The notes beneath the pieces are model-generated. The model saw only the letters and a list, made by a program, of their open reading frames with translations, searched no databases and was not told the DNA's origin. The position numbers and the translations under genes are program-made. Below are positions 604 to 17,083 of a stretch of 64,000 nucleotides of DNA, in pieces. This stretch comes from Tubiluchus corallicola (lineage: Eukaryota > Animalia > Priapulida): NCBI GenBank assembly GCA_030141605.1, contig JAQGDQ010000787.1, positions 1-64,000 of the forward strand, given 5' to 3'. Every line of letters begins with the position of its first letter. Position 1 is the stretch's first letter.

Positions 604-3600
604 GTTCCACAAGTACTGGATGCAGTGGTCAAGTGCACAAGGTAACAGAAGAAGGTATTCTCATATCACCAGGATACCCGGGAAATTACCCAAATAACAC
701 AGATTGCAACTGGCTCATCACTGCTCCATATGGAAAGGTTTGTAACAAATTCCAGAGTTAAATAACAATGTATATGCAACAACAGTTAGTCTAGTTTTGG
801 TTTCGAATCATCATAAAATGCGTCAAATTCGTTAGTGGTTTAATTTAATAAAACTATTGGCAACACAGTTACCATTCTCATGATTTTGAATGTCCACTGC
901 TCAAGAACAGCAACAGCAACAGCAAAAGAAGCGACAACGACAATACCAACAACAACATTACCAATAATATGTCTTGGTAATATGCATAATTTTTTGTTTT
1001 AGGAAGTAAAGATCAGTTTCAAATCATTTGAGGTTGAATTTGAATATGGCTGTATTTTTGATGCACTCTTTATTTATGATGGAACCAAGATCAACCTGGA
1101 TAATAATTCCACCATGTTGGCTAAACTCTGTGGACATTCTCTTCCACCAGACTATCACTCAATATGTCAATCACTTTATCTTCACTTTACAACTGATTAT
1201 ACTGTAGTATACACGGGTTTTGAAATTGAAATCTCTTTTATCGACTCACCGCCTCTTACACCAAGTGACGTTTTTGAGACGGTCCCATCCAGTGCAGATG
1301 TCCTGAGGGGTGAAGATGTAGTGCTAGAATGCACAACTTCAGGAAAATTCCTAAACTGCCATGAAGAAGACTACTCTTGCGTCTGGATGCACAACGGTGA
1401 AATAATTTCTATAGACGAAACCGACAACATTGAACATCTTGTGGAAGCAGAAGAAGATCGAAGAATCTCTGGAATTTATGATATTCTCATTAGAGATGTG
1501 GATGTTGGTCAGCGGGAAGGTTCCTATTGTTGCGGATACAGAAAAGATTCATCGCATGGTAATGATTTATTATGGTTTTCTTGAAAATGAAAACATGAGT
1601 AAATAAATAAAACTGAGTCACTAAATAAATGAGCAAGAAAAAACGAACAAATATTTAATTCAACACACAAATGATATACAAGCCATTATTGAATGAACAA
1701 ACAACTAATAATTGATCACAAAAATCAATAAGTTAACAAAGGAGAACTTGAACAGCTTTTGTACAAACATCTGAACTATTACATTATGTTTTGATATTAA
1801 AAAATCGTGTGGCAAAACTTGACCTTGACATCGTGACCTTCGTGTGACCTTTGATCGAGCACGTAGTAATGTGGTTAGAGCTGGGTGTTGTTTTAATCAT
1901 GTAAGTGTCTACTATTATGGTTTTTATTTCTAGGTTACGTATTCACACAGGAAGCGGAAGTAGAAGCAGTTAGTAAGAATCTTTTATAAACTTTTTACCA
2001 ACTTTACAGTTTGACAGTTTTAGTCGTTATTGTGATGAAGGAAACAGGGAGCATAGATGAAAAAGGAAAAGAGAGAAGTGGAGGAAAATGGAGAAAGAGG
2101 AACAGGGAGCAAGAGAAAGAGATAGTAGAAAGATTCACACAGACATGCATGCATGCACAGAGAGAGAGAGACAGAGAAAGAGAGAGAGAGAGAGAGAGAG
2201 AGAGAGAGAGAGAGAAAGAGAGAGAGAGAGAGAGAGAGAGAAAGAGTGATAGAGAGCAAAAGAGAGAGAATAAGATACAAAAGAAATTAAATGTTATATT
2301 TGACAGATTTCACAAATCACACGACATCTGGTTGCAGTGGTAAAGTGCTTGAGATAACAGAAGAAGGTGTTCTCACATCACCAGGGTACCCGGGCAATTA
2401 CCCAAATAATGCAGATTGTAACTGGCTCATCACTGCTCCATATGGAAAGGTTTGTAACAAATTTCAGAGTTAAATAACAATGTATAAGCTGTAACAACAA
2501 CAAGTCTAGTTTTGGTTTCGCATCATCATAAAATGCGTCAAATACGTTAGTGGTTTAATTTAATAAAACTATTGGCAACACAGTTACCATTCTCGTGATT
2601 TTGAATGTCCACTGCTCAAGAACAGCAACAGCAACAGCAAAAGAAGTGACAACGACAATACCAACAACAACTTTACCAATAATATGTCTTGCAATATGCA
2701 TAATTTTTTGTTTTAGGAAGTAAAGATCAGTTTCAAATCATTTGAGGTTGAATTTGAATATGGCTGTATTTTCGATGCACTCTTTATTTATGACGGCACC
2801 AAAATCGACCCGGATAATAATTCCACCATGTTGGCTAAACTCTGTGGACATTCTCTTCCACCAGACTATCACTCAATATGTCAATCACTTTATCTTCACT
2901 TTACAACTGATTATACTGTAGTATACACGGGTTTTGAAATTGAAGTCTCTTTTATCGACTCCCCACCTCTTACACCAAGTGATGTTTTTGAGACGGTCCC
3001 ATCCAGTGCAGATGTCCTGAGGGGTGAAGATGTAGTGCTAGAATGCACAACTTCAGGAAAATTCCTAAACTGCCATGAAGAAGATTACTCTTGCGTCTGG
3101 ATGCACAACGGTGAAATAATTTCTATAGACGAAACCGACAACATTGAATATTTGTGGAAGCAGAAGAAGATCGAAGAATCTCTGGAATTTATGATATTCT
3201 TATTAGAGATGTGGATGTAGGTCAACGGGATGGTTCCTATTGTTGCGGATGCAGAAAAGATTCATCGCATGGTATAACGAACTTCCTTTCATTTCTTATT
3301 GCAAATGAGACACATTGTGAATAAAAAATTAAACTAATAAATAATTAAATAAGGTAAATAGATAAAAATGAACAAACAAAATATAAATGAGTAAAAGACA
3401 AAAAACAATTTAACAAGCAAACAATAAATAAACAAAAACGGAATCAAACATGGTAAAAGAATGCGCCTTACAATACTTACAATCTGTACAATAATTACAA
3501 CATTTCACATTGTGCTTTTGGACTCAAATGTCAGTATAGCAAGCTTCACTTTGACATCGTAAACTTCATGTAACACTCATTGAGCTGTGTTTATATTAAT

Positions 3601-14800: not shown

Positions 14801-17083
14801 TTTCCATTAATGAAACTGACAACATTGACTATCTTGTGGAACCGGAAGAAAATCGAAGAACGACTGGAATTCATACTATCCTGATTAAAGAAGTAAACAT
14901 AGCTCAAGAAGATGGCTACTATAAATGTGGCTGCAGAAAAGATTCCTCATATGGTAACGACCTACATTAGTTAAATTTGATTCGCTTAGAAGAGTTGTTT
15001 ACTTTTAGCTACTTACTAGTACATGTGTTACAATGATAGTCAGTTTTCTATTAATGTTAATTTCGCTTTTAGGTTATACATATACAGAAGAAGCGGAAGT
15101 AAGAGTTATTGGTAAGACTTTGTTAATTTACTAGTCTTGTAAACCACCTCAACTTATATGATAGACACCACCAAAAGAAAAATTGCAGCTCTTTATATAA
15201 TCAAACCACAGTCAACGTTGGTTAAGATTCAGTATCACCTCTGTGTCCAAGTTGAAAATACCAGTCAAGATTGAAACAAAATGATTTAATAAAATGAAGA
15301 ATAGAGTTGAGCATAGAGAAGAATAGAAAGAGAAAGAGGGAGAGGAGTGAAATAAATGATTACCAACGATTTTAAAGTGGCATCAACTGGCGACATAACA
15401 TATGCATACATTTCTAACAGGTGTCCCATCTCTACCATCAGCCCTTTCTATCAACTACAGTTCCAGTGATGTTGTGGTCCTTGCAATTTTAAAAAGTATT
15501 AAGAACATTGAAATGAAATGCTGCAATATGACATAAGAAGTGTCCAGATTGAGAATTAGTGTCTGTGTGTCCAAAAACAAGTGAAATGCTACTTCGACCA
15601 CAAAAGCCACAATCGTACGACACTGAGCAAACATTTTGTTTTTGGCAAATGTCCGTTGCAATTGCTAGCATTGCACCATGTTTTTGTTGTATTGTTATTA
15701 AAAATGCACCGAGTATTATTATTAGTCAAACAATACAAGTTCTTAAAGTTCACAAAAAATGGACTCTACAACAACAGTAGTTTTTGCCATCTTATGAAAC
15801 AGTTGCGAGAGAGGAGAGACACGAGAAAGAAAGAGGGAAAAGAGAGATGGTGAAAGAAACAAAGACAGAGTGTGAGAGAGCAATAGAGAAGAGAAAAAGA
15901 GAAGCGAGCAAAAGAGAGAAGAAAGAAGTGTATTAAGGTTACTAAGTGTATTCATGAACAACATCAGCTGGAGATGTGTAAAAAAGACAAACACATAAAA
16001 CTGAATTTTTAACATATTTCACGACAACCGTAAGCCCCACTTGCAATGGTGAAGTGCTTGAGATAACAGAAGAAGGTACTCTCACATCACCAGGATATCC
16101 AGCCAATTACCCAAATAACACAGATTGCAAATGGCTCATTACCGCTCCATACGGAAAGGTTTGTAACAGTATGGATATCTCAATAATGCTGCATAACACT
16201 AACGGAAGTGGTGCTGACAAGCCATATCTGACGTGTAACAGTATGTATTTGTAACAGTATGGATATCTAAATTACGCTGCAAACCGGAGCCCATTTGTTT
16301 AACCACTTTCATGGGCAAATTCTTTGTTTGGTTTTGTTAAGCAAATTGTTGATGGAATACAGGTCATGCATTTTTTCTATTATTTTGTTACATTGTACTA
16401 ACCACATTATATTTCTTGTTATAATAATAACATAGAGACACTAAAAAACAATGAGCATTCTTAGTTAACCCTTTCAGTCCCAAATTATTTTTTTAATAAG
16501 AAAAATTTTTGTGGCTTGGTACTTTGTAAAGATGTGCTTCATATTGCAACTGCTAATAATTTTTTAAAGTATTTAAGACATTTAGTATGCACGCTATGCT
16601 GATCTGTACAAAGTCGTCTCTAAACTACTGTACCTTGCGCAGTTTTTTTATACTATGTAGATTTTCTGGTTTACCATTTTAGTGCAATTTTTAGTCTATT
16701 GTTATTGGCTTAAATCAAAATAACTATTAACAGGTCAAATAACTGTCAGTTTTAAAATTTTATTTATTTTAAAGGCAGAAAATATTCTCGTATCCCAACG
16801 GGATACAACGGGTATAAAATGGTTAAAAGCATTGTTTTTTGTTTAGGAAGTAAAAATTAGTTTTAAATCGTTTGACGTTGAGAACGATGAGGTTTGCTAT
16901 TGGGATTCACTTTCTGTATACGATGGCACCAGTGACGACGAATCCACCATTCTGGCCAGGCTCTGCGGGAATTTTACTCCATCAGACTACGAATCTACAC
17001 GTCAGGCTCTTTTTCTCTACTTTAAAACTGATTCCTCCATAACAGGAACCGGTTTCAAAATCGATATTGCTTTTATTGATTAG
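8844..17083 (+). CDS. Gene B: signal peptide-CUB-Ig-CUB-Ig-CUB secreted protein, paralogue of gene A
   Basis: Exons 8844-8913 (MKTFFAVAVILLHCLIGSTEAVA, signal peptide), 11946 (or 11919)-12064, 12282-12828, 13107-13145, 14064-14194, ~16016-16158 with 14407-14953 and 15073-15111 before it, and 16847-17083(TAG). Phases are consistent and the exon architecture matches gene A. The acceptor at 16014-16015 is non-canonical. Confidence 0.87.
9140..9511 (+). mobile_element. Solo LTR with heat-shock elements, in the first coding intron of gene B
   Basis: Termini TGTTGTG...CACAACA; internal GAAnnTTCnnGAA arrays, TATATAAG (~9263) and AATAAA (~9442) in LTR order; TSD not clean. Confidence 0.65.
10092..10211 (+). 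pseudogene. 5S rRNA-derived sequence (SINE head or pseudogene)
   Basis: Recognisable Pol III box A and box C, ~120 nt, many substitutions relative to metazoan 5S, single isolated copy. Confidence 0.85.
10092..10640 (+). mobile_element. 5S rRNA-headed SINE (SINE3-like) with RTE-like body and tail
   Basis: 10092-10211 is a full-length diverged 5S rRNA (gactacggc...gatcaccgaagttaagc...tagtacttggttgggtgacc...gctgtaggctt) with no oligo-T terminator. A GC-richer body follows, ending in attgtcttccgagacagaaggatg, which resembles RTE 3' ends. Confidence 0.7.
10720..11900 (-). mobile_element. Degraded non-LTR retrotransposon 3' RT fragment (RTEX-like), interrupted by an RTE derivative
   Basis: Minus-strand peptides ...INFLIRKFPMCSDDVK... 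and MSLWTNYFNGVINRLRIAYNNGIRKLF lie on either side of the insertion. Confidence 0.65.
11133..11746 (+). mobile_element. Non-autonomous bipartite RTE retrotransposon, copy 1
   Basis: Poly-G and ccggtcccaagcccggataaa 5' leader fused to the RT C-terminus (LKGKVHKEVVRPALIYG...EMRMLRWM), (GAA)n tail, 17-bp TSD aaagacatacaataaac. Confidence 0.85.
13831..13972. repeat. (GACA)n/(GA)n microsatellite
   Basis: Direct inspection. Confidence 0.97.
16469..16822 (+). mobile_element. piggyBac-like MITE, copy 2
   Basis: TTAA flanks; same intronic site as copy 1 in the paralogous gene. Confidence 0.8.

Follow-up and report, generated by a model that had tools for sequence, protein, structure and literature searches.

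Described CUB and Ig proteins and the locus of T. corallicola

The CSMD proteins, in which CUB domains alternate with CCP/Sushi domains, are transmembrane and encoded by conserved single-copy genes. The subject of this study is a pair of tandem genes (designated A and B) in a 64,000-nt stretch of DNA of the priapulid Tubiluchus corallicola (contig JAQGDQ010000787.1 of assembly GCA_030141605.1, positions 1–64,000), referred to below, over its full length, as the window. The modules of these genes alternate CUB with a partner that is likely an immunoglobulin (Ig) domain, and they thus share this alternation with the CSMD proteins, which differ in their partner domain, transmembrane nature and single-copy genes. 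The architecture, made up of two common domains, is real and apparently undescribed. Alternating secreted CUB-Ig proteins were not encountered in searches of open-licence PMC and bioRxiv papers, and the available part of PMC13514124 lists Ig and CUB merely as separate families. A profile search of 1.84 billion representative proteins revealed neither a described family nor a known single-copy orthologue, in agreement with the sequence-only reading of this DNA, which had recognised no named family.

The closest described systems are summarized here from excerpts of the cited articles. The sea-urchin egg bindin receptor EBR1 begins with an ADAMTS head, which is followed by alternating CUB and TSP1 domains (PMC13672419). 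It resembles the present proteins in being secreted, in its tandem alternation of CUB with a partner and in its near-identical acidic repeats (PMC13672419); in T. corallicola, unlike EBR1, the partner is Ig, gene B has no ADAMTS head (the 5′ end of gene A is outside the window), the predicted products are about 600 aa long and the genes are tandem paralogues. Invertebrate MASP-like and C1s-like proteases have the order CUB-EGF-CUB-IG2-Tryp_SPc, with two Ig domains after CUB-EGF-CUB, and so also place CUB directly before Ig in one secreted protein (PMC11312191), but genes A and B encode no EGF domain, no protease and only a single Ig between CUBs. Also secreted, the VCBPs of tunicates and amphioxus are invertebrate proteins in which V-type Ig occurs together with a second binding domain, namely a chitin-binding one; bacteria are bound and opsonised by VCBP-C (PMC7947342). 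In genes A and B, CUB takes the place of the chitin-binding domain of VCBPs, which have two V-type Ig domains, and the layout alternates; no sequence link was found. DMBT1/SALSA, a secreted pattern recognition protein of mucosae that contains CUB domains and tandem SRCR modules in variable copy number, is similar in its secretion, CUB domains and tandem modules, but the present proteins have no SRCR, SID or ZP domain (PMC9038570). The tandem Sp185/333 (SpTransformer) genes are also accompanied by microsatellites, which have been suggested as drivers of the duplication and conversion of these genes (PMC3091723). They encode an unrelated protein, and at the present locus it is the introns between modules that contain the (GA)n tracts. 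Genes A and B fail a defining feature of each of EBR1, MASP-like proteases, VCBPs and DMBT1.

Exon organization of genes A and B

The base composition of the window is that of AT-rich animal DNA. Splice-site mapping combined with translation revealed two tandem genes on the plus strand, each built of a repeated cassette of three exons that encode, respectively, the N-half of CUB, the C-half of CUB fused to Ig, and the last Ig strand. In modules A1, B1 and B2 these exons have phases 1-0, 0-1 and 1-1 with AG/GT edges, and all four copies of the short exon are exactly 39 nt long and have GTAAG donors. A terminal CUB, again encoded as an N-half and a C-half, closes each gene; its stop codon is located where the second domain begins in the modules, and an AATAAA signal lies 10 nt past the stop in both cases (Table 1). 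Two adjacent genes with a repeated three-exon module, each ending in a CUB whose stop codon falls on the CUB/Ig junction, had been proposed before, and this was confirmed in all these details: the CUB/Ig exon anatomy of two tandem genes is real. Homology of the 3′ untranslated region with the start of Ig is weak, the observed score being reached by 20–95 of 5000 shuffles in six of eight pairs and by approximately 350 in the other two.

Pfam analysis of open reading frames (ORFs) outside the known exons, together with tblastn, detected no protease, transmembrane (TM) receptor or further CUB or Ig exon downstream. The Pfam scan covered all 101 plus-strand ORFs of at least 48 aa and 60 of the 103 minus-strand ones. 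No EGF or trypsin domain was found among the 101 plus-strand ORFs (exons shorter than 48 codons being outside the scan), and TSP1, ADAMTS, chitin-binding, SRCR and ZP domains were absent from the Pfam-scanned exons of the locus and ORFs of the window. Besides its first coding exon, gene B encodes no hydrophobic stretch that could serve as a TM segment (best 19-aa mean, 0.99), and the earlier claim that TM and protease domains are lacking is upheld. The modules are acidic (pI 4.1–4.7) and carry two or three N-glycosylation sequons each, and no low-complexity or mucin-like segment was found in the proteins.

Condition of the two genes as assembled

The large exon of gene A is 555 nt long in module 2 versus 556 nt in module 1, a 1-nt frameshift as read from the assembly sequence. 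Skipping of module 2 is predicted to restore a 369-codon frame running through the last CUB; gene A as assembled would need such skipping to reach this domain. The 5′ end of the gene, with its start and signal peptide, is outside the window, the first visible exon being an internal phase 1 exon, and a hydropathy heuristic identified no signal-peptide exon in the preceding positions 1–600. A (TC)n tract (16–242) is located upstream of this exon, in the orientation opposite to that of the (GA)n tracts between modules, which sets this intron apart from those of the modules.

The internal first visible exon of gene A and the lack of a signal-peptide exon in 1–600 would also fit a C-terminal tail of a larger protein of known type, such as a CUB-repeat-bearing astacin, ADAMTS or serine protease, with its head further upstream, gene B then being a truncated derivative; CUB-EGF-CUB-IG2-protease proteins are known in invertebrates, according to the excerpt of PMC11312191. 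This origin is quite unlikely, since gene B has a complete, protease-free start, the Ig domain is without a close match among the 1.84 billion representatives, and in MASP-like proteins the Ig domains precede the protease, while genes A and B both end after CUB.

The hydrophobic first coding exon of gene B is the sole signal-peptide candidate between the two genes, as judged by the same heuristic. Secretion, which had been assumed for both products, is therefore supported for gene B; for gene A the relevant exons lie beyond the window. The terminal CUB N-exon of gene B has an AT acceptor, versus AG at both homologous exons of gene A. Upstream of it, a remnant CUB exon at 15421 is broken off after approximately 24 nt, and its use would add a 38-codon non-CUB tail followed by a stop. 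The predicted alternatives are proteins of 501, 507 or 535 aa without the last CUB, or a protein of 610 aa whose last CUB lacks its first cysteine. Gene B as assembled would thus encode a signal peptide and two CUB-Ig modules with a short tail (501–535 aa), or a form with a crippled last CUB (610 aa). The complete signal peptide-(CUB-Ig)2-CUB product anticipated earlier is yielded by neither gene as assembled (owing to the frameshift in A and the AT acceptor in B), and these lesions had escaped the sequence-only reading.

Two contigs of 674 nt, from runs X1 and X2 of one sample, bridge positions 15402–16075 with no differences and no gaps, indicating that both the AT acceptor and the remnant exon exist in the DNA of that sample, which is possibly the source of the assembly itself. 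A contig of a second sample covering the AT-acceptor region showed nine differences. Contigs of X2 and X4 run from the position of 15421 on into CUB sequence, which points to an intact form of the remnant exon elsewhere in that genome. Of 40 listed contig variants (a further 91 are unlisted), 29 were checked: 24 correspond to the letter of the other copy in the window and five are new. Contig depth over the coding parts is several-fold above that of copy-specific contigs, which is not a measure of copy number.

An artefactual origin of the tandem arrangement or of the lesions, through merged haplotypes or consensus errors in the assembly, is very improbable. Assembly is difficult where nearly identical repeats adjoin long microsatellites, the 3′ flanks of A and B differ by only 5%, most of the checked variants match the other copy, no contig spans the whole region and the frameshift comes from the assembly alone; against this stand the two exact contigs from one sample and the fact that the modules of A and B are only 76% identical.

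Recombination and selection

Comparison of the modules revealed 96–97% identity within each gene across the CUB intron and the greater part of the large exon, and 76% between genes A and B. Between B1 and B2, identity drops from 96.8% to 85.7% within a single exon (p 6e-6). The terminal N-exon of gene B differs from those of B1/B2 at five positions in its 5′ 57 nt and at 18–19 in its 3′ 60 nt, versus seven and one, respectively, when compared with the terminal exon of gene A. This A-like tract continues through the 0.8-kb 3′ flank with 95% identity. Such patchwork identity, as read from the alignments, is characteristic of gene conversion or unequal crossing-over. The exon phases and the module comparison support the earlier proposal that in-frame module duplication gave rise to a family of tandem genes for secreted CUB/Ig proteins of non-enzymatic nature.

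All ten pure (GA)/(TC) runs of at least 24 nt in the window are located at this locus (16–13960). The dN/dS ratio, a check suggested earlier for the CUB and Ig parts, was 0.11–0.44 in 14 comparisons of the 16 that were valid, which are not independent of one another, and 0.56 (CUB) and 0.96 (Ig) for B1/B2. In the three comparisons subjected to Fisher's test, with approximate site counts, purifying selection was supported with p values of 2e-6 to 9e-4.

CUB domains and their predicted calcium site

Pfam CUB (PF00431) was detected above the gathering score in all ten scanned CUB exons; the other two of the 12 present were aligned separately. The calcium motif Tyr-Glu-Asp-Asp, with positions assigned in part from an alignment with cubilin, is kept in all six CUBs. 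This motif is the signature of calcium-binding CUBs and supports multipoint ligand binding, according to the excerpt of PMC10850435. Cubilin was the best PDB sequence match of the CUB halves, and in this respect and in the retained motif the proteins are like the calcium-binding CUB arrays of cubilin, PCPE1 and neuropilin. Unlike these, they have interleaved Ig domains, a fifth CUB cysteine and no EGF, NTR, F5/8 or TM part. The fifth cysteine is present in five of the six CUBs and is replaced by Arg in the terminal CUB of gene B.

Identity of the second domain

The second domain is likely Ig, as suggested by weak but concordant matches, and plausibly V-type. All four modules show the Ig pattern: a B-strand Cys, a C-strand Trp, the F-strand motif D/E-x-G-x-Y-x-C and a G strand. 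The profile search of the 1.84 billion proteins gave five matches, comprising one paralogous exon (P0001), two Ig proteins and two that are likely due to chance. The Ig proteins are a pIgR-like V-set protein of the acorn worm Ptychodera flava (P0003, E 2.3e-5) and a fish Ig protein (P0005, E 6.1e-4). The repetitive P0002 and P0004, which is without a Pfam family, were set aside as the likely chance matches. In a PDB profile search the Ig of OTK was found (E 0.0012). The first match in the Atlas was a V-set cluster (0.86), a lead only, and the Atlas search with the whole exon (0.76) was uninformative; a single-sequence fold (pLDDT 32.5) was unusable. The Ig assignment made earlier is thus retained as regards the pattern and the profile matches; the Pfam result, which does not bear it out, is considered below.

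Each Ig carries two or three extra cysteines. A Cys two residues before the Trp and another two residues after the F-strand Cys occur together in three of the four modules and in P0001; in V-domain geometry these two would presumably face each other, any cysteine pairing being putative.

The spare cysteines, together with calcium, could also cross-link a structural component of mucus, cuticle, a tube or an adhesive. Such a role is consistent with predicted secretion, acidity, the two or three sequons per module, the extra Cys in five of six CUBs and in each Ig, and purifying selection, but it is unlikely, given the lack of any low-complexity or mucin-like segment, the lesions in both copies and the retention of the calcium recognition motif.

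Origin and possible role of the family

A tentative interpretation, put at somewhat less than an even chance, is that genes A and B belong to a lineage-restricted family that evolves by birth and death and encodes secreted, multivalent proteins of recognition, with a role as mucosal or immune agglutinins considered the most likely. The signal peptide would send the protein out of the cell where, lacking an enzyme or anchor, it would bind multivalently in soluble form. Each CUB may hold Ca2+ at Tyr-Glu-Asp-Asp and grip a partner by its basic residues, the Ig domains may serve as spacers and offer a second binding face, and the extra cysteines may lock the module. Unequal crossing-over and gene conversion, perhaps aided by the (GA)n tracts, would alter module number and sequence, and the family would turn over by birth and death, under which damaged copies are expected. 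P0001, a paralogous exon (E 3e-44) with 58% identity and the same boundary at its end, shows that a third subfamily exists in this or a related species.

A role in host defence or at mucosal surfaces is favoured over the other explanations because of the tandem paralogues, the mosaic exchange and the damaged copies. A gamete or egg-coat recognition protein of the same architecture, comparable to the CUB-TSP1 repeats of EBR1 or to the CUB-only spermadhesins, is somewhat unlikely. The tandem repeats of EBR1 are species-specific, near-identical and acidic (excerpt of PMC13672419), and the modules described here are also acidic and homogenised within each gene. However, no TSP1 or ADAMTS domain was present in the Pfam-scanned exons and ORFs, gene B passes directly from signal peptide to CUB, and lesioned tandem paralogues fit a turnover family better than a single receptor; positive selection was not detected either.

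Several observations weigh against the interpretation as a recognition family. The window holds only two genes, to which the databases add one paralogous exon, and both copies carry lesions as assembled. Because the microsatellites were copied along with the modules, their clustering adds no independent support. No positive selection was detected among the four modules available; in the most variable part, the C′–G region of the B1/B2 Ig, pN was 0.137 and pS 0.084 (p 0.61). None of the four exons, scanned without the G strand encoded by the separate 39-nt exon, passes the Pfam Ig cut-off (best I-set 15.3 bits versus 23.7 needed); I-set E values were 0.021 and 0.1 in two exons, and the other two had no Ig match. 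The fold matches are weak, both with Foldseek (best E 8.7e-3, with a model of pLDDT 56.6) and with VIA (best Z 5.5, rmsd 4.0, 86 aligned residues, rows mostly V domains), and the structure model is partly circular, its alignment having contained two Ig proteins. Finally, putative immune, gamete and matrix roles are inseparable on sequence grounds.

Searches for longer relatives with a word index confirmed none of 43 and none of 337 candidates (the method is insensitive and also missed ordinary CUB proteins), and none of 277 pattern matches in metagenome contigs was confirmed. A more specific proposal, that this is an undescribed family in which calcium-binding CUB strictly alternates with disulfide-rich V-type Ig, and in which microsatellite-assisted reshuffling and in-frame module skipping would create individual-specific repertoires like those of FREPs, VCBPs and SpTransformer, is doubtful. 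If the family proves large, expressed and variable, it would constitute an independent case of an invertebrate Ig-based diversified secreted repertoire with visible recombination tracks; otherwise, it would be a further lineage-specific combination of two extracellular domains that are very common, seen as two decaying copies.

Table 1. Positions of exons and associated features of genes A and B in the window.
Feature	Position	Strand	Remarks
Gene A module 1, CUB N-half exon	604–737	+	phase 1-0; upstream exons beyond window
Gene A module 1, CUB C-half + Ig (strands A–F) exon	1003–1558	+	
Gene A first 39-nt exon, predicted Ig G strand	1934–1972	+	phase 1-1
(GA)n microsatellite between gene A modules	2159–2269	none	
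Gene A module 2, CUB N-half exon	2307–2449	+	
Gene A module 2, CUB C-half + Ig exon	2717–3271	+	1-nt deletion near 3151, stop 3218–3220
Gene A second 39-nt exon	3631–3669	+	
(GA)n microsatellite before gene A terminal CUB	3761–4096	none	
Gene A terminal CUB N-half exon	4186–4328	+	
Gene A terminal CUB C-half	4820–5071	+	stop 5054–5056 at CUB/Ig junction; AATAAA 5066
Possible TATA box (7883–7889) and putative end of untranslated first exon, gene B	7883–7944	+	donor GTAAGT at 7945
Gene B putative signal-peptide exon	8823–8913	+	ATG 8844, 23 codons, phase 1 donor GTAAGT; from a hydropathy heuristic
Gene B module 1, CUB N-half exon	11946–12064	+	
Gene B module 1, CUB C-half + Ig exon	12282–12828	+	
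Gene B module 1, 39-nt exon	13107–13145	+	
(GA)n microsatellite between gene B modules	13831–13988	none	
Gene B module 2, CUB N-half exon	14064–14194	+	
Gene B module 2, CUB C-half + Ig exon	14407–14953	+	
Gene B module 2, 39-nt exon	15073–15111	+	
Remnant start of another CUB N-exon	15421–15536	+	intact AG acceptor
Gene B terminal CUB N-half exon	16016–16158	+	acceptor AT at 16014–16015; 5′ half B-type, 3′ half A-terminal-type
Gene B terminal CUB C-half	16847–17098	+	stop 17081–17083; AATAAA 17093
Gene B 3′ flank	17084–17906	+	95% identical to gene A 3′ flank 5057–5869

Other elements in the window

The first coding intron of gene B contains a single full-length copy of 5S rRNA (10092–10210, plus strand; 91.4 bits) and one copy of a dispersed repeat (11134–11737), whose second copy (28993–29485) is 89% identical. 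A very high-copy interspersed element is present in both terminal CUB introns, at approximately 16465–16830 in gene B and, in an internally shorter form, at 4555–4782 in gene A; further copies were found at 45149–45477 and 51792–52280. A dense block of minisatellites with periods of 15, 34, 40, 82, 91, 135 and 154 nt is located just downstream of gene B (21241–30367).

A likely separate Ly6/uPAR (Quiver-like) gene on the plus strand comprises a candidate signal-peptide exon (49099–49147) and a last exon at about 55540–55736, which encodes a hydrophobic GPI-type tail and matches QVR below the cut-off (E 2.3e-5); its middle exons were not found. This Ly6/QVR exon at 55.5 kb was considered as a membrane anchor of genes A and B, and rejected in view of its own signal-peptide exon candidate at 49099. 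An LTR retroelement (31057–35962, plus strand) consists of 1.1-kb direct repeats, 94% identical, flanking an ORF of 789 codons; no reverse transcriptase or integrase match was obtained in the ORFs scanned, and the 789-codon ORF gave SCAN, zinc-knuckle and aspartyl-protease matches.

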